The notes under the pieces: model-generated | What the model saw: the letters and a program-made list of their open reading frames with translations, nothing else | The model's database searches: none | Told to the model about the DNA's origin: nothing | Position numbers and translations under genes: made by a program | In this document: piece by piece, positions 1 to 38,854 of the stretch | How positions within the stretch are numbered: the stretch's first letter is position 1 | Layout of the letters: each line of letters begins with the position of its first letter | Source of the DNA: an uncultured Myxococcales bacterium | Lineage (GTDB): Bacteria; Myxococcota; UBA4151 | NCBI GenBank assembly: GCA_964013405.1 | Contig: CAXGWI010000007.1 | Coordinates: 1 to 64,000 of the forward strand | Direction: 5' to 3' | DNA: 64,000 nucleotides

Positions 1-55
1 CTAGACTCGTCCCAGGCGGACTGCCCCTTTCTAGACTCGTCCCAGGCGGACTGCC
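1..55. repeat. 30-bp-period tandem repeat, truncated by the window edge
   Basis: CTAGACTCGTCCCAGGCGGACTGCC is identical at 1-25 and 31-55. Confidence 0.85.
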
Positions 56-472
56 TCGACCGAGGTTGTTGGTTGGACCCGCCCGAATGGTGCGGGACCT
101 TTCGACTCTTGTGGGAGTGCAGTTGGCCAGAAGTGGCGGTCCTGCTCGGCTGAGCTCCGTCCCATCCGGGGCATGGAGATCGCCCGGTGGTGCCGGCCCA
201 CGGGTCGCACAGGTCACTTGAGCTTCATTCCGGTTGAACTGAAATCGTTCGGGTGAAGATCGTCCGGATAAAGATCTCGATTGCCTGGGGCCCGGGCCCG
301 GGGGTCCTGCCGCTCCCATCCCTCCTGGAGGAGCCTGGGCGCTATGTGCGCCTGACCCCCTGGCGGAGGGCACCGGAACCTCGCTCGCCCCGGGAGGCGC
401 AGACGAGCCGTCCCGCTGCAGCAAGCCGCAGTCGAGGACAGTGTCCGGTGGTTTTGGTGTGCGTTTTGACAT
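1..472 (-). CDS. possible Pro/Gly/Ser-rich hypothetical protein running off the window (partial)
   Basis: Manual translation from ATG 472 gives no stop before position 1 (MSKRTPKPPDTVLDCG...RGSPPGTSLERGSPPGTSL). No recognisable motif or clear RBS, so it may be non-coding. Confidence 0.25.
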   Translation of the reverse strand, partial: MSKRTPKPPDTVLDCGLLQRDGSSAPPGASEVPVPSARGSGAHSAQAPPGGMGAAGPPGPGPRQSRSLSGRSSPERFQFNRNEAQVTCATRGPAPPGDLHAPDGTELSRAGPPLLANCTPTRVERSRTIRAGPTNNLGRGSPPGTSLERGSPPGTSL

Positions 473-513
473 GATTAACTCGTCATTTCGTCAGGGTGAA
501 GTTCGCTCAGAGA

Positions 514-1341
514 TCAACCGCCCAGCAGTGCAAGGGCTGCTTGCGGAGCTGCGTTGGCCTGACCCAGAACGGCGGTGCCACTCTGGGTGAGGATCTGCAG
601 TCGAGTCATCCGACTGGTTTCCTCGGCGAAGTCCACGTCACGAATGCGGCTGTTAGAAGCAGTGGCATTCTCGATATCAGCTTCCAGGTTGCTGATGGCT
701 CGCTCAAGACGGTTCTGAACCGCGCCCAACTGGCTGCGGTACTGATTCACCTGCGAGAGGGCTGTACTGATCAGCGCGAGGGCGCCTTGCGCACTCCCCT
801 GCTGGGAAATCGTCGAATTCGAGATCCCCAGAGATGAGGCCTGCATCGAAAAGTCCACGGTGGCAGTGATCCGGTCATCACCGCTGTCGACAAAGCCGAC
901 CTGGAACGTGAGTTCGAGACTCGCGTTGATGGTCGCGCCGTTGTTGAAGGTGGTGGTCGCTGCAATGCGGCGCACCTCAGCGATCAACTGGGTGTACTCG
1001 AGATTGGACGCGTTCCGGTCCGCATTGTTGAGGGTGGCGTTACCAGCTCGCACTGCGAGTTCACGCATACGGTCCAGAATGGAACGGATCTGCTCGACGC
1101 CTCCCTCCAAGGTCTGGACGAGCGAGATGCCTTCCTGGGCATTGTGCTTTGCCGCCGCCTGTCCTCGAATTCGGTGTTCGAGTAGCGTACTGATCGCCAG
1201 GCCCGCAGCGTCATCGGCCGCGGAATTAATCCGAGCGCCACTGGCAAGCCTTTGAAAGGTCTTACCCAGTTGGTCGCTGGTTCGACTCAGACGGTGCTGC
1301 GAAAAGATCGAAGCGGGGTTTGTTCTAACGACGATAGCCAT
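514..1341 (-). CDS. fliC: flagellin, minimal D0/D1 type, 275 aa
   Basis: RLASGARINSAADDAAGLAI N-terminal motif; RSQLGAVQNRL and SRIRDVDFAEE C-terminal motifs; AAGGAGG RBS. Confidence 0.97.
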   Translation of the reverse strand: MAIVVRTNPASIFSQHRLSRTSDQLGKTFQRLASGARINSAADDAAGLAISTLLEHRIRGQAAAKHNAQEGISLVQTLEGGVEQIRSILDRMRELAVRAGNATLNNADRNASNLEYTQLIAEVRRIAATTTFNNGATINASLELTFQVGFVDSGDDRITATVDFSMQASSLGISNSTISQQGSAQGALALISTALSQVNQYRSQLGAVQNRLERAISNLEADIENATASNSRIRDVDFAEETSRMTRLQILTQSGTAVLGQANAAPQAALALLGG

Positions 1342-1344
1342 GAT

Positions 1345-1640
1345 GATTCCTCCTTGAATCGTTGGTGGTCGCTTCCTTGCGACCGATTTTTTGCGCAGTC
1401 GTCTTGCGCATAAACTACTGTTTTTGCTTATCCTTAATAATGTCCGGTGATGAACTCTTCCCGTTGCAGCCCGCTTCCTACAGGGCCGCCTGGTTATCCA
1501 GTTTTGGGTTGAGTCGATCCAGGACGCTTGTCGTGGCTCGCCCGATGGCGATCCGGGTCCTAAGTGCCTCTATCGAGTGGCATGATTTCCCCTTCCTTGG
1601 GTTTTAAGGCAGTCACCTCCCTGTGACTGCTGGGCGGTCC
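1345..1640 (-). promoter_or_regulatory. multi-GGA hairpin array (CsrA-binding sites) in the flagellin leader / fliS-fliC intergenic region
   Basis: mRNA-sense hairpins GAUUC-AAGGAG-GAAUC (1345-1360, covers the SD), GGUCGC-AAGGAA-GCGACC (1367-1384), CCC-AAGGAA-GGG (1590-1601) and GCAGUCAC-AGGGAG-GUGACUGC (1609-1630). Hand count: 15 GGA on the minus strand vs 1 on the plus strand. Confidence 0.8.
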
Positions 1641-1645
1641 GAGCG

Positions 1646-2053
1646 CTAAGCGCCGAGGACCCCCTGGTTACGGTTCGCTCTCTGCATACGAATTGCTTCG
1701 ACCCAAGCCTCCCGGAGCTCACCGAGCACCTTGCCCACGGGCTCAAGCAGCTCGGCATCACTCTTCAGGTTGGCCTGAATCATGCGGTCGATCATGAAAT
1801 CATAAAGTCGTCGAAGATTGTCTGCGATCTCTGGTGCCTTGTCCGGGCGCAAACTGTTGATGAGCTCGGTGAGCACCTTCACCCCATGGTCTAAGGCCTT
1901 GGCTTTGGCCCCCCGGTCCCCAGCCTCGATGGCCTCAACCGCGACGCGCACATCTTTAATGGCTGCATCGTAGAGCATGATCAGGAGTTGCTCCGGACTC
2001 GCCGAGCCGATCTTCGCCTGAGCATAGGGGTTGTTGTTCCGGGTGGGGATCAC
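1646..2053 (-). CDS. fliS: flagellar export chaperone FliS
   Basis: ASPEQLLIMLYDAAI and IADNLRRLYDFM motifs; downstream of fliD. Confidence 0.95.
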   Translation of the reverse strand: MIPTRNNNPYAQAKIGSASPEQLLIMLYDAAIKDVRVAVEAIEAGDRGAKAKALDHGVKVLTELINSLRPDKAPEIADNLRRLYDFMIDRMIQANLKSDAELLEPVGKVLGELREAWVEAIRMQRANRNQGVLGA

Positions 2054-2074
2054 AGGTCTATCCTTATGGTTTTA

Positions 2075-3382
2075 CTAACCCATGCGGGCCAGCGCACCTT
2101 GTTGTTGTTGTAATCCGGAGAGCAAACGCTCCATGGATGCAAATTGGCGCTTGAGTCGGGCTTCAACGGCCAAGACCCGTACTTCCATTCGCTCCACACG
2201 CTCCCCGAGGTCATCACTTCGATTGTTGTACATCTTTTTACGCTGGGTAAAGATCCCGTCCGACAGATTGAAATCATCGGCCAGGTCTCGCATCCGCTTG
2301 GCGAGGCCGTCAGTACTGTTTGAGATCAGACTGAGCGTCCCCTCATAATCATCGGCCAGAGCCTCTTTGAACTCGGTTTCATTGAGGGTCACATTACCAT
2401 AGCGATCCATACCAATACCGATCAGGCTGAAGGTATTGATGTCGCCGGAGCCACCCGTAACCTCCGTAATCAGGTCTTGGCTCATTCGGCCGCGCATCAT
2501 TCGTACGGACGAATCAAATGCGAGGATTGCAGCACCGTCCCGACTCGATTTCGAATAGGTCTTCGCTTTGCTCAAAGCTGCGTTCATCGCATCAACAAGT
2601 CCTCTGACATTGGCGACGGTCGCATCCACATCTTCCTCAACTTCGATCGTGGTCGCCACCGGCTTGCCATTCTCCAACTCACTCAGGCTATTGAGGTTCA
2701 GTGTAACGCCCTGGATGGCGTCTTCAATTGCGTTGTCGTCATGGGTGATGCTCAGTCCATCCAACTCGATTTCGGCCTTCTGCGAATTAGTGGTCGTGAA
2801 ATCGAGTTCATCAAAACCATCGCTGTAGGTCACCCGTTTGCCGGAGTCTTTGGCTGTGATCGATAAGTGGTAGTCGCTACCGTCAAAGATCGTGGTCGCC
2901 ACCACATTCGCATTGGCGGAGTTAATCGCTGAAACCAAACCAGAAACCGTCGCATCCGCTGGGTCTAACTCGAAGGTCAGTGAATCTTCGCCTTCCACAT
3001 CGATGGTATAACTTCCAGCCCGCACCGCGTTGGAGAGTGAGTCACCCATATTGGCCCGATCCTTTTGGGCCGCGGCGAGTTGGATGACTTTGACACCGAA
3101 GATACCAGGTCCGGCGGTTCCGAGAACACTGGCGCTGACCACGGTTTCGTCCGATGACTTCGCCGTCAGTTCGGAAACCTCCTCCGTTGTATCGATCTCG
3201 CCAGCTTTGGTTTGCATGGTGGTTAGCAGAGTTGATAGTTCACCGATGGCGGAGGCGGCGCGCAGGGCGTCAGCCTGGCGACGCTTGACCGCCAATTGGG
3301 GGGCTCTTTCGACCTGAATGAGCTGCTGAATCAGGCTCTTGGTGTCGATGCCACTTGCTAAACCGCCAACGCTAATCGCCAT
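2075..3382 (-). CDS. fliD: flagellar filament cap protein FliD
   Basis: GLASGIDTKSLIQQLI N-terminus, VIQLAAAQ, NAIEDAIQGVTLNL, RLKRQFASME C-terminus. Confidence 0.95.
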   Translation of the reverse strand: MAISVGGLASGIDTKSLIQQLIQVERAPQLAVKRRQADALRAASAIGELSTLLTTMQTKAGEIDTTEEVSELTAKSSDETVVSASVLGTAGPGIFGVKVIQLAAAQKDRANMGDSLSNAVRAGSYTIDVEGEDSLTFELDPADATVSGLVSAINSANANVVATTIFDGSDYHLSITAKDSGKRVTYSDGFDELDFTTTNSQKAEIELDGLSITHDDNAIEDAIQGVTLNLNSLSELENGKPVATTIEVEEDVDATVANVRGLVDAMNAALSKAKTYSKSSRDGAAILAFDSSVRMMRGRMSQDLITEVTGGSGDINTFSLIGIGMDRYGNVTLNETEFKEALADDYEGTLSLISNSTDGLAKRMRDLADDFNLSDGIFTQRKKMYNNRSDDLGERVERMEVRVLAVEARLKRQFASMERLLSGLQQQQGALARMG

Positions 3383-3384
3383 GT

Positions 3385-4215
3385 CTACCTCCTTAGGAGC
3401 TCAAGGGCGAGCCGACCCAACTCATTAGCCTGGGTCAGAATGCTCGCACCGGCTTTTAGTCGAACCTGTGCTTGGACGAGACTACCGGTTTCTTCTGCGT
3501 AATCGGTGTCTCGAATTACCGCACTGGTCCGCCCTAGATTCTCCATCTGATGGACGTTGACGTCAAACGCGACCTCTAACTCTTTATATCGAGAACCGAT
3601 TCGGGTCCGGTAATCGATCAACTGATTCATCGCACTCTCGATACGATCGAGAGCCGTGGCGGAACTTGTTTGAGTTGCAATATCGGCGGCGCCAGCGTCG
3701 ATTGAGAGTTGGGCCGGCCGCATGTCGGACATGGTGAGCACCACTTTGTTGTGCTGCCCCTCTCGGATACCCGTCTGAAAGGTCAAGGCGCCAGAGGTTG
3801 CTAGCCCTCGTACATTATTGATCTGGACCGTGTTGGCCAGTCGACTGAGCTCTTGCTGCAACGCGCCAAATTCCACCTGAGCCTGAACCCGATCAGAGTT
3901 GGTCATCGTGTCCGTGGCCGAGGCCACAGCAAGTTCTCGCATGCGGTCAAGCACATCGAGCATCTGGACGTTGGTCGACTCGATCGCACGACCGAGCGCC
4001 ATCCCCGTCTCGGCATTTTGCCGGGCCTGCTTGTAGATCTCCATGTCGCTCTTTAGGCGCTGACTCATGGAATACGCTGCCGTCCCATCGCCAGGGTGAT
4101 TCACCCGGTAGCCGGAAGAGAGGCGCTGGATCGATTGCTCTGAAGATCGGTAGGCCCGAGACAGGTTGAGGCGAGCATAGCCTGCGGGCAGATTGTGGTG
4201 CACGATGGCTGCCAT
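3385..4215 (-). CDS. fliC: divergent flagellin paralog, 276 aa
   Basis: RLSSGYRVN, LDRMRELAV, IRDTDYAEE and LTQAN flagellin motifs, with substitutions in otherwise conserved positions. Confidence 0.88.
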   Translation of the reverse strand: MAAIVHHNLPAGYARLNLSRAYRSSEQSIQRLSSGYRVNHPGDGTAAYSMSQRLKSDMEIYKQARQNAETGMALGRAIESTNVQMLDVLDRMRELAVASATDTMTNSDRVQAQVEFGALQQELSRLANTVQINNVRGLATSGALTFQTGIREGQHNKVVLTMSDMRPAQLSIDAGAADIATQTSSATALDRIESAMNQLIDYRTRIGSRYKELEVAFDVNVHQMENLGRTSAVIRDTDYAEETGSLVQAQVRLKAGASILTQANELGRLALELLRR

Positions 4216-4219
4216 CGCA

Positions 4220-4270
4220 CGCTCCTTGCGGACATCCGTGTCCTGTTATTGCCCAGCTTCCCTGCCGGAC
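4220..4270 (-). promoter_or_regulatory. three CsrA-type GGA hairpins in the leader of the second flagellin
   Basis: CGC-AAGGA-GCG (SD, 4220-4230), GGAC-ACGGAU-GUCC (4230-4243) and CCGGC-AGGGAA-GCUGG (4253-4268). Confidence 0.8.
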
Positions 4271-4277
4271 AATTCAG

Positions 4278-4309
4278 ACAACGGGCCACGGGGCAAAACT
4301 GTTTAGGCC
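4278..4309 (-). promoter_or_regulatory. putative sigma28 (FliA)-type promoter of the second flagellin-fliD-fliS unit
   Basis: GGCCTAAA-N16-CCCGTTGT on the minus strand; the same architecture occurs upstream of flgM. Confidence 0.55.
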
Positions 4310-4359
4310 TGCAGGCGAGACAGGCGACAAAACCCTGGACTTTATTTTATATTTAACGG

Positions 4360-4794
4360 CTAAAACAACGGCTTGCGCGTCTCGAGGTCTTTGTCCATCA
4401 AGACGGCTTGAATCCCACGGCGCTGACTCAAATCCAGAATAAGTGGAGCTGTCATGTTGGCTGTCGGCTTGCCATCGTGAAAGCTCACAAGAACCAACAC
4501 ACCCAGAGGCTCGTCTGGCTCGGCCCCAAGAATGGCAAGTTGATCAGCGGTCGGCTGGGGCCGATAACTCTCAAAGAACAGGTCTGGGTTGACCACCACA
4601 AAGGCAATATTCGGCTCATCGAGGGGCACCAACCACATGAACGCGGAGCCCCCCTCCTTGTGGGGCACCAATGCAAACTCGCGCAGTTGGTTGAAGCCCA
4701 GCAGACCTACGGGAAAATTCAGCAATACGTCGCGGCGAACTTCGATCTCGCCCAGGCGTCGATTCGTGAAGATGACCACTTCGGAATCAGTCAT
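4360..4794 (-). CDS. fliW: flagellar assembly factor FliW
   Basis: FPVGLLGF, FMWL, AFVVVNP and TANMTAPLIL motifs. Start moved to ATG 4794 (GGAG RBS, overlaps the csrA end). Confidence 0.93.
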   Translation of the reverse strand: MTDSEVVIFTNRRLGEIEVRRDVLLNFPVGLLGFNQLREFALVPHKEGGSAFMWLVPLDEPNIAFVVVNPDLFFESYRPQPTADQLAILGAEPDEPLGVLVLVSFHDGKPTANMTAPLILDLSQRRGIQAVLMDKDLETRKPLF

Positions 4795-5074
4795 CGTCTG
4801 CTCCGGATTGACCATGAGGTTCGGGCTCCATTTGCTGGCGTGCTTCAACCAATGCGCCGAGGGCATCGATGTCGATATCACCGGCAAGCGCTGCCTCAGC
4901 GGCTGCTCGGTTTTCTTCTTGGATTTTTAGCCAAAGTTCTTCTCGGAACACCTGGTGATGCCTGGGCGCCTCGATCCCCAATCGAACACTGCTCCCGCGG
5001 ATCTCAGTGACCACGATACGGATGTCATCGCCAATCCGTATGGCCGCGCCAACCCGGCGGCTCAAAGTCAGCAT
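4787..5074 (-). CDS. csrA: carbon storage regulator CsrA with C-terminal extension
   Basis: MLTLSRRVGAAIRIGDDI...VRLGIEAP...REEL...IQEENRAAA, the FliW-associated long form. Confidence 0.97.
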   Translation of the reverse strand: MLTLSRRVGAAIRIGDDIRIVVTEIRGSSVRLGIEAPRHHQVFREELWLKIQEENRAAAEAALAGDIDIDALGALVEARQQMEPEPHGQSGADDD

Positions 5075-5109
5075 TCAGGTTCCTCACTTCAGGCTGCTCA
5101 AGTCTTAGA

Positions 5110-6009
5110 TCACGACATGTAGTTGAGCAGGCTTAAACCCTGTACCCGAGCGGAGGATGCGAGGCTAGCCTCATATGCTGTTTGGCGAAGGGAAAGCTCA
5201 CTGGCCGCCTCTGCGAAGTCGGTATCTTGCAATGAAGCCCGAGTGCGCTCCAGCTCAACTGCAAAGACCTCGTTGATGTTTTTGTGGGTTTGTAGGCGCT
5301 TAAAGTTTGCCCCCAGATCGCTCTGAGCCTGAGTCACTTGGTCGATGGCTCGCTCCCACTCATCGAGGGTGGCTTGAACCGCTGTTTGGTCGTCAGCCTC
5401 TAGGGCATCTCGAAGCTGCTCGGTGAGTCGAAAGATATTGATACCGCCATCAGCACCATTGAGTCCCACAGTTGCATCGTGATTAATACGGACTCGACTG
5501 CCCTCGGCAACGTCCACCTCCAAGGCACCACTGTCGCCAACGAAGCCAACGTTGCGCGGGTCGACAGCGTCGTTCCCATAGGGTGCAGATGCATTCAGGT
5601 GACCACCAAAAACATAGAGCCCGTCAAACTGGGTATTAGCTAAGGCCTTCATGCTCTCCAGCATCGACTGAACCGTTGCTGCTTGGGATTGCCTCTCGCC
5701 ATCTTGGAAAGAGTCGGCCATCATGGTGGCCGTTGTACGGGCCTCGTTCAGCACGGTAATGATGGCTTGATAGGCATCGTTGGCCGTATTGATCATGCCC
5801 TCGCCGAAGTCGATGTTGCGCTGATAGCGCTCTAGGTCGCCTTCATAGCGTTCGATACGAACCAAGCGAGACATGGCGGCAGGGTCCTCGCCTGGCCGAC
5901 TGAAGCGGTGGCCACTCGCCAACTGCTTTTGCGTCGTATCAAGAGCTTCTCGGGCCCCACCCATGGCGGCGACTCGAGCGCGAAAATTGCCGTATTCCGA
6001 TACACGCAT
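5110..6009 (-). CDS. flgL: flagellar hook-associated protein 3 FlgL
   Basis: QLASGHRFSRPGEDP, ANTQFDGLYVFGG, AYEASLASSARVQGLSLLNYM; between flgK and csrA. Confidence 0.94.
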   Translation of the reverse strand: MRVSEYGNFRARVAAMGGAREALDTTQKQLASGHRFSRPGEDPAAMSRLVRIERYEGDLERYQRNIDFGEGMINTANDAYQAIITVLNEARTTATMMADSFQDGERQSQAATVQSMLESMKALANTQFDGLYVFGGHLNASAPYGNDAVDPRNVGFVGDSGALEVDVAEGSRVRINHDATVGLNGADGGINIFRLTEQLRDALEADDQTAVQATLDEWERAIDQVTQAQSDLGANFKRLQTHKNINEVFAVELERTRASLQDTDFAEAASELSLRQTAYEASLASSARVQGLSLLNYMS

Positions 6010-6019
6010 TCGCTCGCTC

Positions 6020-7531
6020 CTAGCGCTTCAGACTCAAGATCGTCTGTAGATTTTCGTCGGCGGTTGTCACCACCTTAGCCGCGGCCTCAAAAGCCCTCTG
6101 CACCCGGACGAGATCGGCCAACTCTTCGTCCATATTCACACCGCTGATGCTTTCTCGCACCTGCTGAGTTTGGTCTCGACGGGTCTCAGTTCGCTGGAGA
6201 TCGCGCCGAGCACGAGAGGCAGCATCTCCCAAGCTGCGGATCTCGTTCGCCCAACTGTCGTGCGCAGGCGACCCTGACGCAAAATCATCCAGGGGGTCAC
6301 CGCTGATAATACCCTTGAACTCCAACTCAGCGATTGCGAGCGCATTGCGGTTGTCACCGGGTGCAGAGTTGGCATCAACAGCTGCAGCCACCAGGGTTGC
6401 ATCGGCCACCACATTTGGATTCACCCGAATCTGCTGGGCCGGTGAACCATCGGGGTCGGCAAAGGTGAAAAAATCGCCGCCGGGGTTTCCATCCCGGTCA
6501 AACGCGGTGATCACGCCAGGGGGTGGGCCCGGATTGTTCAGATCGGGGCGTTGGCTATGGAACAGATTAATCTTCTCAACGAACTCTTCAACCATCGTGT
6601 CGAGACGCTCAAAGGCGGCACCAACGATTCCATCTCGCGCCTGAATCAGTCCACCGAGTTCACCGCCGCTGATTTGATCCGTGACATCAGCGCCTTTGGG
6701 AAGGGGGCGTCGGGCCGTTTGGTCAGCATCTCGAAAGATGATCCGAAACAGGCCATCATCGCGAGGGTTGTTCGGGTCGGCCTGGGGCGCTTCAGCCAAA
6801 AGGCTGCCCGAGCGACGCCCGGAGACCAGGGACTCGCCATGATCCATGACCACATGGACGTAGCCTTCATCATCGGTGAAGGTTTGAACCCGAACCGCAG
6901 CGGAAATCTCGCGAATCATCCGTTGGCGGGCGTCCCGCATATCGTTCGCCTGAGCCGAGCCGGCTTCAGCATCATGGATCTCTCGATTTAAGGTGGCGAT
7001 GTTCTCGGCGAGACGGGTCACCAAGTCGGCGGTTGCCGCCAGGTCGCCGTTCATGTCGCGCCGAAGAAAGTCTAGGCGCTCCGAGGCCCTGTTAAAGCGG
7101 TCGGCAATATCCTCGCCTCGGGCGATGACTTCCTCCCGGGCCACCATCGAAGCTGGGTTGGTACTGAGTTCCCGCCAGCCATTGAAGAAATTGGTGATGC
7201 CGGGGCCCACGCCGAAGCTTGCGTCCGTATAGACCACCTCCACCTGTGTGAGGAACTCATAACGGGCTCGCGCCTCATGAAAACTGCTCGTATCCTGATC
7301 GAGGCGGCGCTCGAGGATCACCTGGGCGTTTTGTCCTACCGATGCAATCTGAGCACCATTACCGAGAAAGCCTTGGGGGGTACTGTTGGCCTGGGCATCA
7401 TCGTAGTAGGCCAATTGCCGGCTGTAACCGGGAACCGCCGAATTGGCCATGTTGTGACTGATCACATCCAATGCGGTGCGATGGGCCCGCAGGGAGTTTC
7501 TACCGATGTATAGCGCCTGAAAGTTACTCAT
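6020..7531 (-). CDS. flgK: flagellar hook-associated protein 1 FlgK
   Basis: SHNMANSAVPGYSRQ N-terminus, ANDMRDAR, SGVNMDEELADL...QRAFEAAAKVV C-terminus. Confidence 0.96.
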   Translation of the reverse strand: MSNFQALYIGRNSLRAHRTALDVISHNMANSAVPGYSRQLAYYDDAQANSTPQGFLGNGAQIASVGQNAQVILERRLDQDTSSFHEARARYEFLTQVEVVYTDASFGVGPGITNFFNGWRELSTNPASMVAREEVIARGEDIADRFNRASERLDFLRRDMNGDLAATADLVTRLAENIATLNREIHDAEAGSAQANDMRDARQRMIREISAAVRVQTFTDDEGYVHVVMDHGESLVSGRRSGSLLAEAPQADPNNPRDDGLFRIIFRDADQTARRPLPKGADVTDQISGGELGGLIQARDGIVGAAFERLDTMVEEFVEKINLFHSQRPDLNNPGPPPGVITAFDRDGNPGGDFFTFADPDGSPAQQIRVNPNVVADATLVAAAVDANSAPGDNRNALAIAELEFKGIISGDPLDDFASGSPAHDSWANEIRSLGDAASRARRDLQRTETRRDQTQQVRESISGVNMDEELADLVRVQRAFEAAAKVVTTADENLQTILSLKR

Positions 7532-7544
7532 CGGCTGGTCTCGG

Positions 7545-7844
7545 TCAGGCTCGGTGATCGATCACTGAATGGGACCGACTGCGCACCTGAGCGTCGGGGC
7601 CATAGGAATCCTGACCTAAAACGGCCCGCAAAAGCGAAGCGCCTCCCCGGGCCAACTCGCCGTTAAATCGATTCAGATCACCCAATTCCTGGGCTTCCTC
7701 TCGACTGATTTCGGCGACGGCGAGTTCGGTGAGCACACCTTCTTTTTCGCTGGCACAAGCGAGGATTTGCTCCGCATCGCCGTCCCGGAGGGCAGACCGC
7801 TCTCGTTCAAGCAGGTCGCGCATCCGTTCGACGATGGTCATCAT
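7545..7844 (-). CDS. flgN: FlgN-family flagellar export chaperone
   Basis: LLERERSAL...EKE...LNRFNGEL helical pattern; between flgM and flgK. Confidence 0.75.
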   Translation of the reverse strand: MMTIVERMRDLLERERSALRDGDAEQILACASEKEGVLTELAVAEISREEAQELGDLNRFNGELARGGASLLRAVLGQDSYGPDAQVRSRSHSVIDHRA

Positions 7845-8152
7845 TCGTCGCCCTCTTCGACCTTCAGGTCTTCAAAGAAGGCCCGGTCTTCCAGCATCTC
7901 CCGAGCCATCCGTTCGGGATTGACCGGGTAGGTCCCCGAGGCGACGGCTTCCTTGAGAGCCGTCAACCGGGCCTCGTCAGCCTTGTCCAGCTTGGCTCGG
8001 CTGGCCTCGATCACTGGCTCAAACTTCTGTGCTCGTAAATCAACGGTCGCTGCAGGTTCCGTTCGAGGGGCTGGTTTGCCCAGTTCTTTGGGCTCGTTGG
8101 TCGGTTGAACCCGACCGACAACGCCAGCACCTTTTAAGGAATCGATACTCAT
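7841..8152 (-). CDS. flgM: anti-sigma28 factor FlgM
   Basis: RLTALKEAVASGTYPVNPERMAREML C-terminal motif; start moved to ATG 8152. Confidence 0.9.
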   Translation of the reverse strand: MSIDSLKGAGVVGRVQPTNEPKELGKPAPRTEPAATVDLRAQKFEPVIEASRAKLDKADEARLTALKEAVASGTYPVNPERMAREMLEDRAFFEDLKVEEGDE

Positions 8153-8164
8153 CTTCGTTCCCTC

Positions 8165-8176
8165 TCCATCCGTGGA
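8165..8176 (-). promoter_or_regulatory. CsrA-type hairpin in the flgM leader
   Basis: UCC-ACGGAU-GGA directly upstream of the flgM RBS. Confidence 0.6.
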
Positions 8177-8197
8177 TCGGCTGCTTCCACTCCCCAT

Positions 8198-8229
8198 ACA
8201 ACGACGCGTCGCACGAGAAACTATAGGCC
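8198..8229 (-). promoter_or_regulatory. putative sigma28 (FliA)-type promoter of the flgM operon
   Basis: GGCCTATA(GTTT)-N16-GTCGTTGT on the minus strand; resembles TAAAGTTT...GCCGATAA and the motif at 4278-4309. Confidence 0.55.
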
Positions 8230-8332
8230 CATAGTCCCGATCCAGACTATAGGGTCCTCCAGGTCGGTTAACGGAACAGGGTTAAAAATTGTTAAAAATA
8301 AAATTGCATTTTCCTGCATTTACAGCGGCTTA

Positions 8333-9700
8333 ATGATTCGTTCTGCGGGGGTTCTTTTACTTGAAAACCAGGGCGATGTCCTGGTGATACAACGGGCCCA
8401 GGAACTTCGCTTTCAGCCCGGCTACTGGAGCTATCCAGGTGGGGGCGTTGAAGCCGATGACTTCGGCGAGACCCAGATGGTCCAGGCGGCCCGGGCGGCG
8501 CGACGGGAATGCGAAGAGGAGGTGGGCATCAGCCTGCCAGAGGAATCCCTGGCCCAGATGCGTTATCTGGGCCGCTGGAAAACGCCTCCTTATGCAGGGC
8601 GGGGCTATGATACCTTCTTCTTTGCATTGCGGATCGACGGCGACCGCCCTGAGGTCTGCGGTAATGCTGAAGTTGCCGACTGGCAGTGGGTGCCGGCGAC
8701 GACTTTTCGACAGCAATGGCAGCAGGCCGAAAAGATTGCGGCGCTACCCGTCCTGCGGGCCCTCGATGCCCTCAAGGACAGTCATGGACCGCCCTTTCAC
8801 AGCGAGCAGCAACCCCGGGGTTTTCTTTCCATGGGGGGACCAGCCTCCTACCTGCCGTTAAAAACCGCGACCTTACCACCGGGCACCCATACCAATTGCG
8901 TCAGTCTACCGACCCCTGAGGGCTTCTATTTGGTGGACCCAGCACCGGTAGACCGGGATGAACGAGCTGTGCTCCTCGCCTGCCTTGCAGAACAGCAACA
9001 AGAACACGGGCCTCTCCTCGGCCTCATCCTCACCCATCTCCATTATGACCATCTGGGTGCGGCCGCCTGGCTTGCCAAACAACTCAACAAGCAGGTCCTC
9101 GCAAGTCAGGCGACGGCCGAGGACCTGGCGGCCGGAGCCGGTGGCGGCTTGAGTGCTGGCGGTGCCAGCGGTGGGGAGCCCCTCCGTGTGGATGCCTTTC
9201 TGCAAGAGGGGGATCAACTGGGCCCCTGGCAGGTTTTAGAAACCCCTGGTCACGCTCGGGGGCACCTCTGCTTTTTTGAGGCCCGTAGCCGAGTCCTGGT
9301 CTGTGGCGACATGTGCGCCGGCGAGGGCACCATCCTCATCGAGCCTAACCAAGGGGACATGACCCTCTACCTCGCTTCGCTCCAACGCTTGGCGGATTTA
9401 GAACCCCGTCTGGCCATCCCCGCCCACGGCCAGCCCCTTGCCGAGGCAGGCCGGGCGCTACGAGCCCTCAGAAACCACCGCCTGCAACGGGAACAAAAGG
9501 TTCTCAAGGCCCTGCAAAGCCAGGGCCCAGCAGGGGCTGAAGACCTCACACCGCTGGCCTATGCGGACGCAGATCCTATGGTCTGGCCTTTGGCTCGCTT
9601 GAGCGTGGAGAGTCACCTGCGGAAGCTGGCCAATGACGGTTGCGCCCGCCAAACCGGTGACGCATGGGTGGCGGTTGACGACGGATCCATCACACTGTAG
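8333..9700 (+). CDS. NUDIX + metallo-beta-lactamase-fold hydrolase + winged-helix fusion (LACTB2-like)
   Basis: Nudix box GGGVE...ARRECEEEVG; THLHYDH, TPGHARGH, GD and PAHG MBL motifs; C-terminal ESHLRKL. Confidence 0.88.
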   Translation: MIRSAGVLLLENQGDVLVIQRAQELRFQPGYWSYPGGGVEADDFGETQMVQAARAARRECEEEVGISLPEESLAQMRYLGRWKTPPYAGRGYDTFFFALRIDGDRPEVCGNAEVADWQWVPATTFRQQWQQAEKIAALPVLRALDALKDSHGPPFHSEQQPRGFLSMGGPASYLPLKTATLPPGTHTNCVSLPTPEGFYLVDPAPVDRDERAVLLACLAEQQQEHGPLLGLILTHLHYDHLGAAAWLAKQLNKQVLASQATAEDLAAGAGGGLSAGGASGGEPLRVDAFLQEGDQLGPWQVLETPGHARGHLCFFEARSRVLVCGDMCAGEGTILIEPNQGDMTLYLASLQRLADLEPRLAIPAHGQPLAEAGRALRALRNHRLQREQKVLKALQSQGPAGAEDLTPLAYADADPMVWPLARLSVESHLRKLANDGCARQTGDAWVAVDDGSITL

Positions 9701-9732
9701 CGCCGACCATGCACCCGGACAGGACCCAAAAC

Positions 9733-12909
<3,177 letters not shown>

Positions 12910-12913
<4 letters not shown>

Positions 12914-13401
12914 AGGTCCTTCCCTGGTCTGAGGTGGCGCTGCTCGCCCTCGACGTCGACGGTGTCCTCACCGATGGACATGTGCTCTTCGATGGCGCTG
13001 GCGGCGTTCTCAAAAGGTTTTTCGTTCGGGACGGCTCCGGTATTGTTCGCCTCCGTCGAGCCGGCGTGAAGGTCTGCTGGATTACCGGCCGGGCCGATGC
13101 GGCCACCCGCCAAAGGGCCGAGGAATTGAGCATCGACCGACTCATTGAGGGTTGTCACGAGAAAGCCGAGGCCCTGAGTCGCCTCTGCTTTCATTTCCAG
13201 TGCAAAGAGGAGCAGGTGGCCTACATCGGCGATGACCTCCTCGATCTCCCCGCATTGAAGCGATCGGGCATCGCCTGCGTCCCAGCCAATGCCCACGGCG
13301 AACTCTTCGACGTCGCGGATTATGTCTGCGAGGCCGCGGGGGGCTACGGTGCCGTGCGAGAAGTCTGCGATAAGATCCTCGCGGCGAAAAAGGAGGACTA
13401 A
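12910..13401 (+). CDS. kdsC: KDO-8-phosphate phosphatase
   Basis: DVDGVLTDG, GDDLLD, GGYGAVRE. Confidence 0.95.
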
Positions 13402-13827
13402 ATGATCATGCTCATGGCCTGGATGTTTGCGACCCCAGCGACGCCTCCCCCGCCGGTGACCTTCACCGCCGAGAAATGCCGCTACGGCCAGGCGATGCGA
13501 GTTGCCAGTTGCAAGGGCAAGGTGAAGGTGCGTCGGGGCGATGCTCATCTGCGCTGTAAAGAACTCACCGTGATCTTTGACGACAAGGGAACGATCTCTC
13601 GGCTCTCCTGTGTCGGCGCCGTCCAATTCACCCGCAATGAGGAGAAGGCCACCAGTCAGCGGGCAGACTACGAACGAGACCAGGCTCGGGTGGTCCTCAA
13701 AGGCCAAGCCCAACTCAAGCGGGGCCTCGCCAAACTAGCCGGCGAGCGAGTCATCTTCCTGCTCGATAAAGACGAGGTGCTCGTAGAGGGTGGCGCCCAA
13801 GGCCAGTGGCAGGAAACCTCTCCTTGA
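13402..13827 (+). CDS. lptA: LptA/OstA-family LPS transport periplasmic protein
   Basis: Beta-jellyroll-like pattern (GKVKVRRG...GAVQF...VVLKGQAQL...GERV); directly upstream of lptB. Confidence 0.8.
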   Translation: MIMLMAWMFATPATPPPPVTFTAEKCRYGQAMRVASCKGKVKVRRGDAHLRCKELTVIFDDKGTISRLSCVGAVQFTRNEEKATSQRADYERDQARVVLKGQAQLKRGLAKLAGERVIFLLDKDEVLVEGGAQGQWQETSP

Positions 13828-14537
13828 GTCTTCTTCTCGCCAAAGGTCTTGTTCGCCGCTTCGGCAACCGCCGCGTCGTGGATGGTGTTGATCTCACCTT
13901 AGAGCCTGGTCAAACTGTGGGCTTGCTTGGCCCCAATGGGGCAGGAAAAACGACGACCTTTCGCTTGATTGCGGGGCTGTTGCGCCCGGAGCAGGGGCGA
14001 ATCGAGTTCGATGGAAAGGATGTCTCCGACTGGCCCTTGCACCGCCGAGCACGGGCAGGCTTGGGTTATTTGGCCCAAGAATGCTCCCTGTTTCCCGGCA
14101 TGAGCGTCCGGGAGAACCTGCTGACCGCGGCGGCCCTCGGTGGCATTCGCAAGGATGAGGCGAGGGAGCGGGCAGATGCTTTGCTCGAGCGCTTGGATCT
14201 TGGCCGGGTGGAACACGCCCAGGATCACACCCTTTCCGGCGGCGAGCGGCGGCGAGCCGAGATCGGCCGGGCGCTGATGGTGAACCCCAAGGTTTTGCTC
14301 TTTGATGAGCCCTTTGCTGGCGTTGACCCGGTGGCCGTTGCATCCCTGCAAGAAGAGATTCAGAAGCTGGCCAGCACGGGGCTGGCGGTCCTGATTACCG
14401 ACCACGCCGTTGCGGCAACCTTTGCCATTTGTGATCAGGTTTCGATCTTGAATGAAGGCCGAGTCCTCGTCAGCGGTGCACCGGAGACCGTGAGTTCGGA
14501 CCCCCTCGTCCGTGCTGCCTATTTAGGGCCCGAGTAG
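13824..14537 (+). CDS. lptB: LPS export ABC transporter ATPase LptB
   Basis: GLLGPNGAGKTT, LSGGERRRAEI, DEPFAGVDP, LITDH; TTG start overlapping the lptA stop. Confidence 0.96.
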   Translation: MSLLLAKGLVRRFGNRRVVDGVDLTLEPGQTVGLLGPNGAGKTTTFRLIAGLLRPEQGRIEFDGKDVSDWPLHRRARAGLGYLAQECSLFPGMSVRENLLTAAALGGIRKDEARERADALLERLDLGRVEHAQDHTLSGGERRRAEIGRALMVNPKVLLFDEPFAGVDPVAVASLQEEIQKLASTGLAVLITDHAVAATFAICDQVSILNEGRVLVSGAPETVSSDPLVRAAYLGPE

Positions 14538-14615
14538 AGGCAAATTACGGCCGGGGGGCTTGCCATCAGGTCCCTCGGGCCCCATCATAGTGTGTGGAGG
14601 TCCTCTAGAACCCAC

Positions 14616-16082
14616 GTGTATCCCTCCCTGCAGCAAAACCTGAAGGTATCCCAGCAACTGCGGATGACCCCGCAGCTCCAGCAGGCCGTCAAACTCTTGC
14701 AGTACAACCGGGCCGAACTCAGCGAGTTTATCGCCAAGGAACTCGAGGAAAACCCCACCCTGGAAAGGAATGAAGACAGGCCAGAAGAGGTCTCTCTTGA
14801 GGAGGCCAACTACGAAGGCGCGCTGCAGGAAAAGTCGACCATTTCCGAAACGAGCAAAGAGCGAGTCGAAGCGACGGAGAACCAGCCCGAGATCGACTGG
14901 AACCGGGTCGACTTAAACGACCGCGTCCTTCGCCCAGCGCCGCCAAGCCGCCAAGACGACCTCCCAGGTTATGATCAAACGCTGACCCGGGAGGACACCC
15001 TCTCCGAGCACTTGGTTTGGCAACTTCGGATGCAACCGCTCACCCCAGAGGACTTCGCCCTGGGCGTCCAAATCATCGGCAACCTGGATGATCGAGGCTA
15101 TTTCACCGACGGCTTGGAGGGCTGGAACGCCTTTGTCGCCGCCGAGGCCCTTGATGGCGACCAAGCAGAAGCGGTCCGTCAAGGGATCATGTTGATGGAC
15201 CCTTTAGGGGCTGGCGCCCTCGACTTGAGAGAGTGCCTGCTCCTTCAACTCCAGTTGGCCGGCCACGAAGGTGACCTTGCCTGGCGACTGGTGGCCGACC
15301 ATCTTGAGGATTTGGGCTCATTAGATCTTCGCAAGTTGGCCCGCAGCGCCCGAGTGAGCGTGGAAGAACTCGAAGAAGCCAAGCAATTGATCAGCATGCT
15401 TGAGCCTTGCCCGGGCCGCCCATTTACGAACAGTGAAACCGAACGCAACCCCTTCATCACCCCCGACGTCTGCATTCTCAAGCAAGGGGGAGAGTGGGTT
15501 GTCCATCTCAACGAAGACGGCATGCCGCGACTTCGGGTGAGCAAATACTACCAAACAGCCTATCGTAGTGGGCGATTAGCCGGCGAAGAACGTAACTATG
15601 TCGTTGAGCGACTCCGTCGGGCCGAGTGGGTGACGAAGTCGATTCTGCAACGGCAACAGACTATTCGGAAAGTGGTCACGAGCCTGCTTCGTTTCCAAAG
15701 GGATTTCTTTGAGCGGGGTCCAGCCCATCTAAAACCGTTGGTGCTCAAGGATGTCGCTGAAGACATCGGCATGCACGAATCCACCGTCAGCCGAGTCACC
15801 TCAAACAAGTACGCTGAAACCCCCCAGGGGCTTTTTGAACTCAAGTATTTCTTTTCCGCGCGAATCCAAAGTCTCGGCGGGCGCGAAGACGTCAGCGCCG
15901 AGGCTGTCCGACAAAGAATCGGCTCCATCGTGGGCCGGGAAGATTGCACCAAGCCCTACAGCGATTCCGACCTGGTCCGCTTGCTTCGAGCGGAAGGAAT
16001 CGACATCGCCCGGCGAACCGTCGCCAAATATCGTGAACAACTCCGAATCCCCGCGGCAGGAAAGCGTCGGGTCCGGAGATAA
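14616..16082 (+). CDS. rpoN: RNA polymerase sigma-54 factor
   Basis: MTPQLQQAVKLLQ region I, HESTVSR HTH, ARRTVAKYRE RpoN box. Start GTG 14616 (alternative 14592). Confidence 0.98.
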   Translation: MYPSLQQNLKVSQQLRMTPQLQQAVKLLQYNRAELSEFIAKELEENPTLERNEDRPEEVSLEEANYEGALQEKSTISETSKERVEATENQPEIDWNRVDLNDRVLRPAPPSRQDDLPGYDQTLTREDTLSEHLVWQLRMQPLTPEDFALGVQIIGNLDDRGYFTDGLEGWNAFVAAEALDGDQAEAVRQGIMLMDPLGAGALDLRECLLLQLQLAGHEGDLAWRLVADHLEDLGSLDLRKLARSARVSVEELEEAKQLISMLEPCPGRPFTNSETERNPFITPDVCILKQGGEWVVHLNEDGMPRLRVSKYYQTAYRSGRLAGEERNYVVERLRRAEWVTKSILQRQQTIRKVVTSLLRFQRDFFERGPAHLKPLVLKDVAEDIGMHESTVSRVTSNKYAETPQGLFELKYFFSARIQSLGGREDVSAEAVRQRIGSIVGREDCTKPYSDSDLVRLLRAEGIDIARRTVAKYREQLRIPAAGKRRVRR

Positions 16083-16121
16083 TGCATCGCTGCCAATCAG
16101 CGATAGAAGAGGAGAAAATCG

Positions 16122-16694
16122 ATGCAAGTCCAAGTCACATTCCGCCATATGGAGCCTACGAGCGCACTCAAGAGCTATACCAGCGAGCGCATTGGCCGCA
16201 TCGAAAAACAACTGGCCAAAGAGAGTGCCGCTGAAGTCATTCTGAGCGTCGAGCGCCACCATCACATGGCCGATATCAAGTTACGCTCTGGCGGCGTGAA
16301 CATGCGTGGAAGGGAATCTTCAACGGACATGTACAACTCCATTGACCGGGCGATCGCAAAGATCGAGCGGCAATTGGGTCGCTACCAAGGTAAGCTCAGA
16401 CGGTTTATTCAGCCCCCCACCGCTCAACAGGTGGCGCTGCACACCCTGGAACAGCCCGACGACGTCGATGGCCAAGTCTCAGAGCAGGAACAGCCGGAAG
16501 TCGTCAGGACAACGCTGGTGGACGCCAAGCCACTGACCACGGAAGAGGCCATTATGCAGATGGACCTCCTGCACCGAGAGTTCCTCGTCTTTGTCGATGC
16601 GGACAGTCGGCAGATCAAAGTGCTCTACCGCATGGATGAAGGCAAACTCGGACTCATCGATACCGCTGGTGATGAGCCCATAGGCAACGCTTAG
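16122..16694 (+). CDS. hpf: ribosome hibernation promoting factor, long HPF
   Basis: VTFRHM, DMYNSID...KIERQL; C-terminal KPLTTEEAIMQMDLL...FLVF...VLYR domain. Confidence 0.95.
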   Translation: MQVQVTFRHMEPTSALKSYTSERIGRIEKQLAKESAAEVILSVERHHHMADIKLRSGGVNMRGRESSTDMYNSIDRAIAKIERQLGRYQGKLRRFIQPPTAQQVALHTLEQPDDVDGQVSEQEQPEVVRTTLVDAKPLTTEEAIMQMDLLHREFLVFVDADSRQIKVLYRMDEGKLGLIDTAGDEPIGNA

Positions 16695-16759
16695 AACAAG
16701 CAAAGCAACGCATGTAGAGAACGCTGCTTGAGAGGCTAGATCGGATGGAGGATGCCCCT

Positions 16760-17626
16760 ATGACCGCGGAACGCCTCGTGGTCGTTGCCGGACTCAGCGG
16801 GAGTGGGAAGTCGACGGTTTTAAACCGGCTAGAGGACTTGGGCTACCGGGTGGTCCATAACCTCCCTGTACCCCTTGTCGACGGGTGGTTATCCTGGGCT
16901 CGCACCATCGACCCCCACGCCCCCAAAGCCATCGGCTTGGACGCCAGTGGAGTGGATGATCTCGAGTCCATGACCTGGTTTCAGAACCAAAATCACGCCG
17001 AACTCAGCGACTTGGTCTTCTTGCGGGCCAGTGACGAAGAACTACTCAGGCGGTATTCAGTCACTCGACGTCGGCACCCCAACAGCGCCGAGGAAAAAAC
17101 CCTCAAGGAAGCCCTAGAACTCGAGCAAAGCCGCCTTCAACCCCTCAAGGAGGCCGCAAGCTATTGTCTCGACACGACAAAGATGACGGCCAGCCAACTC
17201 AAAGAATGGGTGGTTCAAGTCTTTGGTCAGAATCTACAGCAGGGTCTGCGAGTCACGCTTATGAGCTTCGGCTTTAAGTATGGGATTCCCACATACTTGG
17301 ACATCTGTGCGGATTTGAGGTTCCTCCTCAACCCCTACTATGATCTCGAACTCCGCCCGCTAACCGGCCACGATGCCGCAATCTATGACTACGTCATGGG
17401 CCAAGAAGACGCCCGACGATGGCTTGATGAGTTTACCGAGTCACTCCTGTGGCAGCATCAGGCTTTCGAGGCACGGGGGAAGGTTCATCTCTCCATTGGA
17501 CTCGGCTGTACCGGCGGACAGCACCGATCGGTCACCCTGGCTCGGGCCCTCGCTGAACGCCTACAAGAACAGGGCATCAGTGTTGACCTGCGACATCGAG
17601 AAACACCGGCACCCAAATCCCTTTAG
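16760..17626 (+). CDS. rapZ: RapZ/YvcJ-family P-loop RNase adapter protein
   Basis: GLSGSGKS, RRYSVTRRRHP, SFGFKYG, RFLLNPYY, GCTGGQHRSV; GGAGGA RBS before ATG 16760. Confidence 0.95.
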   Translation: MTAERLVVVAGLSGSGKSTVLNRLEDLGYRVVHNLPVPLVDGWLSWARTIDPHAPKAIGLDASGVDDLESMTWFQNQNHAELSDLVFLRASDEELLRRYSVTRRRHPNSAEEKTLKEALELEQSRLQPLKEAASYCLDTTKMTASQLKEWVVQVFGQNLQQGLRVTLMSFGFKYGIPTYLDICADLRFLLNPYYDLELRPLTGHDAAIYDYVMGQEDARRWLDEFTESLLWQHQAFEARGKVHLSIGLGCTGGQHRSVTLARALAERLQEQGISVDLRHRETPAPKSL

Positions 17627-17674
17627 GGCTCGGCCGGTCCGTGTTACGGGGCCCCGCCCCCTGGGAGGAAATCC

Positions 17675-18121
17675 TTGGTCTCCGTACTCCTCGTCACCCA
17701 CAGCCCCCTTGCGAACGCTCTGAGTGAAGCTGCTCGCTGGATTCTCGGCCGGGAGTTCGAGGACTTTCACGCACTGGACCTCGACCCTGCAGCCAGCCCC
17801 CAAGAACACTTGTCTGAATTGGAACGTACCCTCAGCCGATTGGATGGGGAGCAGGTGCTCATCCTTACCGACCTTTTTGGCGGCACACCCCACAACTTGG
17901 CACTCACCCAATTGGAACCAGGTCGCGTCGAAGTTGTTTCCGGCGCAAACCTCCCCATGATGTTGGCTTTGGATGGCTTACGAAAAGAGTGCAGCACTGT
18001 CGCCGAACTCGCACCGGCAATCGCAAAAAAAGGACGCCACGCTGTGGTGGATGCGGGGGGCAGCCTCAAGCGCCATCGCCACGAGTTTGGCACCGGTGAG
18101 ATCCCGGCTCTAGACCCATGA
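17675..18121 (+). CDS. PTS EIIA, mannose/fructose family
   Basis: LLVTH (phospho-His), LTDLFGGTP, GANLPM. Confidence 0.93.
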   Translation: MVSVLLVTHSPLANALSEAARWILGREFEDFHALDLDPAASPQEHLSELERTLSRLDGEQVLILTDLFGGTPHNLALTQLEPGRVEVVSGANLPMMLALDGLRKECSTVAELAPAIAKKGRHAVVDAGGSLKRHRHEFGTGEIPALDP

Positions 18122-18390
18122 AAATCGCACAAACATTTACCCTTAAAAACCAACTCGGACTACACGCTCGGGCTGCTGCCCGGCTGGTTTCCCTACTCAG
18201 CCAAGCCGAAGGCGATGTTTGGGTCCGCTATGGCGATCGGGAAGTGAACGGCAAGTCCATCCTGGGCCTCTTGACGCTGTCCGCCCCCAAATCGACAGCG
18301 ATTGAGATCGAAGTGGAGGGCGAAACCAGTCAAGACATCCTCGATGCCGTTGCCACCTTGATCGAGGATCGATTCGGCGAAGCCAATTGA
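18118..18390 (+). CDS. ptsH: phosphocarrier protein HPr
   Basis: GLHARAA and NGKSILGLLTL motifs. Confidence 0.95.
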   Translation: MKIAQTFTLKNQLGLHARAAARLVSLLSQAEGDVWVRYGDREVNGKSILGLLTLSAPKSTAIEIEVEGETSQDILDAVATLIEDRFGEAN

Positions 18391-38117: not shown

Positions 38118-38854
38118 CTGGAGCCTATCCCTTTGCCCAAACCGACAATGATCGGGCCCGGCGGATCGAACAGTTCATGCCGCTGGTTCGGCGGGTCGCT
38201 CGGCGAATCGTCCGTCGACTCCCGGCGGTTGTCGACCTTGCGGACCTTGAGCAGGTCGGGGTGATTGGCCTCATCGACGCAATCGACCGTTACGATGCCA
38301 GTCGTTCAGAGCGCTTTGATGCCTATGCCGAATACCGAATCAAGGGGGCGATCCTCGATGACCTGCGCAAGAAGGATCATCTCAGCCGTCGTCACCGGGG
38401 CCGCATCAACAGCCTGCGTCAGGCCCAAGATCAGTTGAAGGCCGAGCTCGGCCGCGAGGCTGACGCCGCCGAGTTAGCCAAGGCGCTCTCCATCAGTCCG
38501 GCGGAGGTGGAAGATCTACGGGCCGAAGCCAACAGCAGTTGGCTGGTCTACGACGAGACCGGTGGTGATGACGAGCGCTCCCGTAGCGGCGGCGCCATTC
38601 TCGCTTCTCTCAACACAACATCCGATATCCACGAAGAAGTGGCCTCTCGGCAGGCCCAAGGCATGCTCGCCGAATCCATTGGCCACTTACCCGAGCGACT
38701 CCAATTGCTCCTCGCGCTCTATTATCAGGAAGATCTGACCTACCGCGAGATCGCAGAAGTCCTCGGCGTCACCGTGGGGCGGGTCTCCCAACTCCACAGC
38801 GAAGCCACCCGCAAACTCCGCGGCATGCTTGAGCGGCGTATGGGGGTGGCGTGA
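38114..38854 (+). CDS. fliA: flagellar sigma factor sigma28
   Basis: DLEQVGVIGLIDA, YAEYRIKGAILDDLR, LYYQEDLTYREIAEVLGVTVGRVSQLH. Confidence 0.96.
   Translation: MTGAYPFAQTDNDRARRIEQFMPLVRRVARRIVRRLPAVVDLADLEQVGVIGLIDAIDRYDASRSERFDAYAEYRIKGAILDDLRKKDHLSRRHRGRINSLRQAQDQLKAELGREADAAELAKALSISPAEVEDLRAEANSSWLVYDETGGDDERSRSGGAILASLNTTSDIHEEVASRQAQGMLAESIGHLPERLQLLLALYYQEDLTYREIAEVLGVTVGRVSQLHSEATRKLRGMLERRMGVA

Follow-up and report, generated by a model that had tools for sequence, protein, structure and literature searches.

The window, a stretch of 64,000 nucleotides beginning at base 1 of contig C7 in the genome of an uncultured Myxococcales bacterium (3.9 Mb, 94% complete), carries a flagellar gene cluster on its minus strand with the order flgM, flgN, flgK, flagellin-family gene, csrA, fliW, fla2, fliD, fliS and fliC. 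The flagellin-family gene behind flgK is flgL, judged by its position. A single copy of csrA (4787-5074) is followed by fliW (4360-4887, Pfam FliW), fla2 (3385-4215), fliD (2075-3382, Pfam FliD_N and FliD_C), fliS (1646-2053, Pfam FliS) and the flagellin gene fliC (514-1341, Pfam Flagellin_N and Flagellin_C), all on the minus strand. fla2 is a second flagellin-family gene with its own ANGGA operator and is likely the first gene of an operon; a putative FliA (sigma-28)-type promoter of fla2-fliD-fliS-fliC, with a motif common to relatives, was located at 4278-4306 on the same strand, and the FliA gene lies at 38165-38830. The encoded CsrA possesses R44, N55 and a C-terminal tail which by sequence comparison resemble those of the FliW-binding CsrA of PDB 5DMB, and for B. 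subtilis it has been described that FliW binding needs CsrA N55 (bioRxiv 10.1101/2020.07.02.184341).

The same gene order was found at 16 loci of the family, 15 of them complete with a fliS-fliC spacer of 252-304 nt. csrA was present in 6/6 family genomes, and CsrA was matched in 29 of the 301 genomes searched. Tandem flagellin genes are a feature of the family. In the window, an open frame rich in Pro, Gly, Ser and Arg with short tandem repeats lies 3' of fliC (2-472, minus strand) and gave no Pfam match. Its repeat unit also ends contig C116, which harbors three further flagellin genes, and contigs C7 and C116 likely adjoin in the genome. Relatives carry a shorter Arg/Pro/Gly-rich ORF in the same gap after fliC.

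The fliS-fliC spacer (1342-1645, minus strand) extends over 304 nt from the fliS stop to the fliC ATG and had been described in a sequence-only reading as a CsrB/RsmZ-like array of GGA hairpins that may act as a CsrA sponge RNA. The length and the count of 15 GGA on the transcribed strand against 1 on the other were confirmed, and the enrichment held in 5000 dinucleotide shuffles (15 versus a mean of 8.8, p(≥15) = 0.003). CANGGA was likewise enriched in these shuffles (4 versus 0.77 expected, p = 0.006); ANGGA alone was not significantly enriched (5 versus 2.7, p = 0.12). At least 15 GGA were reached by 0.06% of 153,288 genome windows of 304 nt. Four hairpins with perfect stems and ANGGAN hexaloops were detected where the earlier reading had placed them, all on the minus strand: HP1 (1609-1630, 8 pairs, 14/14 spacers), HP2 (1589-1601, 3 pairs), HP3 (1367-1384, 6 pairs) and HP4 (1345-1360, 5 pairs), the last of which lies over the fliC Shine-Dalgarno (SD) sequence. 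Four such hairpins occurred in 0/5000 shuffles, and of 1132 found genome-wide, four lie within about 300 nt at the fliS-fliC spacer only. The rest of the assembly thus yielded no larger hexaloop cluster of the CsrB kind. The spacer as a whole folds more stably than shuffled sequence (z = -3.49 versus 100 shuffles).

The two weaker hairpins that had been proposed fared differently. At 1469-1486 a hairpin does form, as an optional mid-spacer element (1466-1488, minus strand) with an unpaired AGGA in a 5-nt loop and no ANGGA, its GGA being kept in 1/2 close relatives; the one at 1428-1437 did not form in local folds, was kept in 0/12 relatives and is lost in an RNA contig of a related strain. A further 6-pair hairpin with A-rich flanks and no GGA (1392-1410, minus strand) is invariant in 4/4 close relatives. 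On the plus strand, the antisense of HP3 together with a T run (1366-1395) scores as a terminator-like site for antisense transcription.

To compare the spacer among relatives, five family genomes and 11 metagenome loci with at least 61% FliS identity (of 18 returned) were used. One locus ending inside fliS, one identical to the window and one single-base variant of another locus were left out. This yielded 14 distinct spacers, including one that breaks off at the fliC SD. Three of them group closely with the window and the other 11 belong to a sister group, metagenome loci having been assigned by FliS identity rather than by taxonomy; the 14 spacers are kin and not independent. In a 13-row alignment the GGA at 1620, 1596, 1590, 1353 and 1350 were kept in 12/12 relatives, those at 1554 and 1433 in 0/12, and the remaining ones in some. 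Of the 15 GGA, four are hairpin sites that are conserved, and a further two are SD motifs adjoining them. Across the 14 distinct spacers the conserved sites fall into an upstream pair (HP1 and HP2) and a downstream pair (HP3 and HP4), separated by about 220 nt, and judged from this comparison most of the other GGA are incidental. The hairpins of the earlier reading are real, conserved and designed like CsrA sites, with stem changes on both sides; the array is not supported, as only two pairs are kept. No Rfam family matched the window at gathering score, and within 1250-1750 two unrelated chance matches lie on the other strand (E 0.64 and 3.9). Since conservation is limited to two pairs and no Rfam match exists, the spacer is not CsrB-like.

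HP1 shows two-sided changes at 3/7 pairs in the sister group. The loop of HP2 overlaps an SD-like G run; its GGA is kept in 12/12 aligned relatives and the strict hexaloop rule applies in 13/14 spacers. The whole upstream module of the sister group is 92% paired, compared with 17-45% in slid controls, and 3/14 of its pairs changed on both sides. In HP3 one pair changed from G-C to A-U in close relatives and in strain X4, which was seen in RNA contigs; the four close-relative spacers are otherwise too similar to reveal covariation. In the sister group, site 1 of the fliC operator is at the HP3 position in 3/11 spacers and in a hairpin about 30 nt upstream in 8/11, never at both. That the fliC operator keeps two sites though the first one moves is consistent with selection for a two-site arrangement of the kind a CsrA dimer would occupy. 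The downstream pair is, by its design, an ordinary operator of the hag/flaA type on the fliC ribosome site.

Behind the upstream pair lies a micro-ORF which the sequence-only reading had overlooked. It spans 1560-1583 (minus strand), has seven codons (MPLDRGT) and ends in TAG, and its ATG lies 5 nt behind the SD-like G run that overlaps the HP2 loop. The succession of upstream hairpin pair, SD, ATG and in-frame TAG is found in 14/14 distinct spacers. The micro-ORF was sought with a targeted script, and an unfiltered listing of every ATG shows the same ORF; two spacers have an additional in-frame ATG two codons earlier. Its length is seven codons in the close group and five in the sister group, i.e. 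exactly two codons apart. Within the sister group, pairwise identity is 0.73 inside the micro-ORF compared with 0.41 over the following 18 nt, and downstream of the stop only 4/91 well-filled columns are invariant. Against what we take to be the anti-SD motif, the micro-ORF SD scored -10.7 to -11.2 kcal/mol in 11/11 sister-group spacers, whereas the fliC SD was weaker, at -4.9 to -9.5 kcal/mol, in 4/10. The SD of the micro-ORF is thus better conserved in this group than that of fliC itself. A non-coding RNA of the CsrB type is not supported by these data, as the upstream hairpins coincide with a putative ribosome-binding site that leads into the conserved micro-ORF in 14/14 spacers.

Pairwise codon differences within the micro-ORF amount to 79 non-synonymous and 20 synonymous ones. 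As the inner codons vary freely, the act of translation is favored over the peptide as what matters. An active peptide of 5-7 residues, for instance one that stalls as a nascent chain or serves as a signal, would account for the Asp/Asn and the last Ser/Thr before TAG, which recur in 14/14 micro-ORFs, but the peptide is very short and most codon differences alter a residue, and we regard this explanation as extremely improbable. From its conservation the micro-ORF is likely translated, and the anatomy of two operators with a translated micro-ORF in the first is, on the comparison of the spacers, a probable one in which we have good confidence. Two other explanations of the ORF were rejected. 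Read-through of TAG into fliC does not fit, as the micro-ORF shares the fliC frame in just 3/15 complete loci, and a disguised sigma-28 promoter does not fit either, as a CGAT core is found there in few spacers and is absent from most.

The stop codon lies in a predicted stem (1520-1562, minus strand) in which 1562-1557 pair with 1525-1520 and enclose a hairpin at 1538-1551. Its six pairs are invariant in 4/4 close relatives, without covariation, and in most of the sister group a local hairpin replaces it. A stem at or just past the stop codon, seen in most spacers, may be a switch element which a terminating ribosome could open. The stem also bears on a purely structural explanation, in which the four sites would form a long-range operator to which two CsrA dimers bind cooperatively or by looping so as to repress fliC, with ATG and TAG kept for RNA structure and not to be translated. 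In sister-group local folds the ATG is able to pair with the 3' arm of HP1, so that it could be conserved without translation; the stop codon within the invariant stem of the close relatives and the excess of non-synonymous changes point in the same direction. However, the frame is preserved across a length difference of 6 nt, the micro-ORF SD is the better conserved of the two SDs, and the T and A of the stop lie outside the following stem in most sister-group spacers. Nor was any long-range pairing to the fliC start predicted. When the micro-ORF was forced single-stranded, the accessibility of the fliC ribosome site shifted by at most 0.07 (13 spacers), leaving structural coupling to the fliC start unsupported. 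A long-range operator is on this balance quite unlikely. The window stop lies 218 nt before fliC, and across spacers the micro-ORF ends 176-218 nt before it. It neither overlaps nor abuts the fliC start, unlike translationally coupled upstream ORFs, and the earlier statement that the upstream sites are too distant from the fliC start for direct occlusion was upheld.

Neither fliS nor the spacer yielded a promoter candidate, and along 1-4500 the minus strand is devoid of terminator-like sites. The promoter-like motif 5' of fla2 recurs in 5/5 genomes examined and 5' of another flagellin. Its form in the family is TAAAC, 15 nt and a YCGWTG-type box, and we infer FliA as its sigma factor; a different form, TCAAG...GCCGAT, was seen 5' of flagellins from other Myxococcota families. 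A matrix trained on six family sites, a small set that includes window 4278-4306, gave nothing above 5.0 in fliS and spacer of the window compared with 22-27 for the training sites, and 1/16 loci scored above 10. A sigma-54 pattern was found in 0/14 spacers and a sigma-70 pattern in 2/14. Elsewhere, the gap before the last flagellin gene (L040-L043 in the relatives, C116 in the window's genome) holds a conserved TTGAC-type promoter-like motif and, a long way 5' of the start, a lone AGGAGG-type motif in 5/5 genomes. The four relatives also have a hairpin followed by a T run there that resembles a terminator, suggesting from the sequence that this gene has a separate housekeeping promoter and a long leader.

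Contigs from seven marine RNA runs of five studies, found by matching the window stretch, were used as RNA evidence; such contigs carry no information on strand, true ends or single transcripts, and their depths were not used for ranking genes. Spacer contigs were found in 7/7 runs, and the upstream module was covered in 6/7. One contig (1255-1674) joins the spacer to 87 nt of fliC, and another from a related strain in a different study (1387-1852) joins it to 207 nt of fliS; absent cover over most of fliS proves nothing. Cover of 1-20000 in run X1 is uneven (11/30 bins empty), a picture closer to RNA than to DNA though no proof of it. The presence of 1400-1645 in RNA libraries suggests, if weakly, that it is transcribed, a lack of transcription having been named beforehand as evidence against the sponge. 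As the contigs join the spacer to both fliC and fliS, it looks like an internal leader of the flagellin operon, and with the gene order this makes it likely that the spacer is the internal leader of fla2-fliD-fliS-fliC. For the separate RNA of the earlier reading, neither a promoter of its own nor a terminator on the transcribed strand was found, and the RNA contigs run into both neighbors.

The upstream ends of these contigs lie at 1631, 1644, 1674, 1674, 1707 and 1852. Four of the contigs, drawn from three studies, end between 1644 and 1707, close to where fliS ends, and processing of the leader there is possible. This would suit a built-in decoy, in which the upstream pair mimics the flagellin ribosome site, soaks up a second CsrA dimer and sets a CsrA threshold; it would act on the mRNA or as a processed fragment, and the micro-ORF would merely clear CsrA or stabilize the piece. 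The cover of the upstream module in the RNA runs is consistent with it, and in C. jejuni the flaA leader titrates CsrA beside FliW, as already published (PMC4894983). On the other hand, no 5' end is common to the studies and one contig extends well into fliS, the spacer yielded neither a promoter nor a terminator, and the conserved in-frame stop is unneeded by a pure decoy. The upstream module adds just two conserved sites, compared with 22 GGA described for CsrB (PMC7652899). A decoy as the main role is therefore in our judgment somewhat unlikely, while CsrA sponging by the spacer is plausible as a side role. The FliW partner switch is, as the earlier reading had stated, encoded close by, with the genes for CsrA and FliW in the same cluster. 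For the FliW-bearing Geobacter sulfurreducens no CsrB-family RNA has been characterized (PMC13407953), and the excerpted text of PMC13443453 makes no mention of Myxococcota.

The resemblance of the upstream module to flagellin starts was supported by a covariance model built on the sister group. After the training set, flagellin ribosome-site modules were the next-best matches, indicating that the upstream module copies a flagellin start, a likeness which also favors the decoy. At E ≤ 1 the model does not detect the upstream module of the window itself, so that the two groups are linked as homologous by position and design. Strong matches were obtained in four sister-genus genomes, only the fliC operator was matched in the window's genome, and nothing in its congener. 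Among 145 other genomes of the phylum, seven weak matches (E 0.01-0.04) were returned, at loci without a match to flagellar or CsrA queries, and by this search the module was not found outside the window's family. On visual inspection, a duplicated module was absent from seven flagellin leaders in four genomes that carry CsrA and represent two other families; in one of these genomes, three short ORFs of 9-11 codons are preceded by an SD. A further family is represented by five genomes (L066-L070) in which csrA adjoins fliW, and no flagellin, fliD or fliS match lies within 15-16 kb around the two genes.

Within the window's genome, six modules of a hairpin pair plus a start were found, located at three flagellin starts, one protein kinase, one 43-codon frame and the micro-ORF. 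The kinase module is a flagellin-type two-hairpin ANGGA module on the start of a Ser/Thr kinase gene (Pfam Pkinase) on contig C22 near 11431 (L071:184-1185), and in a relative (G005:C23 near 9434-9501, L059) a similar module lies 5' of a kinase-like ORF. These sequences hint at a CsrA target outside the flagellum, and CsrA-type modules 5' of a kinase gene would suggest further targets for a decoy to buffer.

Outside the window's family the position of the leader is taken by an ORF. An 82-126 aa FliT-like ORF lies directly 3' of fliS in 12/12 outside-family loci (picked from 21), one of which matches Pfam FliT weakly; Pfam FliT was not found in the window's genome. Together with the tandem flagellin genes of the family, this would be in line with a relic without a present role, either a leader left behind when a flagellin copy was deleted or the remnant of a fliT-like gene. 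Yet the outside ORFs begin a few bases past the end of fliS, but the ATG of the micro-ORF comes about 60 nt further on and has an operator of its own in front of it. The micro-ORF peptide is unlike a flagellin N-terminus, the stems covary, and ATG, TAG and SD were kept while adjacent sequence drifted. We hold a relic to be very unlikely.

In the published switch, the target of CsrA is a single operator with two sites at the flagellin start, and CsrA is freed once flagellin takes FliW (PMC7652899, PMC4894983). The leaders of B. subtilis hag and C. jejuni flaA have two ANGGA hairpin loops, the second of them on the flagellin SD, as is found here for the downstream pair, and the cluster resembles these systems also in having csrA with N55 and a C-terminal extension and fliW side by side. 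The flaA leader is 45 nt long with one module (PMC4894983); the leader described here is about 300 nt long, seemingly intra-operonic, and unlike those of hag and flaA includes a further module, placed on a micro-ORF some 220 nt upstream of the first. In E. coli, CsrA sites over the start of a short upstream ORF are described for iraD/idlP (ORF27), but idlP overlaps iraD and acts by translational coupling (PMC7652899), while the micro-ORF is distant from fliC, which has its own operator. The E. coli pgaA leader is similarly long and multi-site with SD-proximal and distal CsrA sites, and differs in that refolding driven by CsrA exposes rut sites there (PMC7652899); in the spacer, by contrast, it is a start codon that the distal sites cover, and the sequence shows no strong rut signal. 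CsrB/CsrC and RsmX/Y/Z share the CANGGA-type motifs in hairpin loops, whereas the spacer has two separate pairs, an internal ORF and FliW nearby, and yielded no promoter, terminator or Rfam match. Searches of the open-access literature brought up no flagellin leader with a micro-ORF gated by CsrA.

Taken together, we tentatively favor a mechanism, to which as a whole we give slightly less than an even chance, in which two-site CsrA operators on the fliC and micro-ORF starts act jointly and translation of the micro-ORF gates the fate of the leader. The hairpins, their pairing in two modules, the conservation of the micro-ORF and the genes for CsrA, FliA, FliW, Rho and RNase E/G are what the sequences show. 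With little free flagellin, FliW would hold CsrA and ribosomes would load at both starts, and a ribosome on the micro-ORF would shield the beginning of the long leader. Once flagellin accumulates and takes FliW, free CsrA would close the fliC and micro-ORF starts. With the downstream pair occupied by CsrA, fliC translation would stop; the emptied micro-ORF would leave about 200 untranslated nt open to cleavage by RNase E/Y or to Rho, and cleavage or termination in the leader would result in less mRNA for fliC and the flagellin genes behind it. That CsrA would block ribosome loading follows from the design of the sites and from the published systems (PMC7652899, PMC4894983). CsrA binding, micro-ORF translation and the decay or termination step are the parts of this scheme that we infer.

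For the two kinds of step, CsrA acting via a short ORF (iraD/idlP) and via Rho (pgaA), precedents are described in E. coli (PMC7652899). A gene for an RNase Y-like protein scores slightly below cut-off in the window's genome. A version with a 5' roadblock to RNase J is weakened, as no RNase J gene was found in this 94%-complete genome. C exceeds G after the micro-ORF stop in 12/14 spacers (24 C versus 18 G in the window), in a region that is about half paired; this bias is mild and thus weak for a Rho site. In a variant that we consider unlikely, the upstream module would be cut out or stabilized as a ribosome-gated CsrA decoy whose lifetime is set by translation of the micro-ORF. If this were true, one transcript would be both the flagellin message and a tunable RNA antagonist beside FliW, and ribosomes and CsrA would compete on a dummy flagellin start.

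As the module was not found outside the family in the genomes searched, the reach of the finding is limited. Within the family, the combination of CsrA-type operators in tandem and a conserved micro-ORF inside a flagellin operon would, on the present comparison of sequences, represent a new form of hag/flaA-like control. A second operator on an ORF of 5-7 codons would mean that the flagellin-FliW-CsrA switch also governs the fate of the transcript, or that it includes a titrating dummy start, and the tandem operator may explain how a promoterless flagellin gene is tuned apart from the upstream fliD and fliS.
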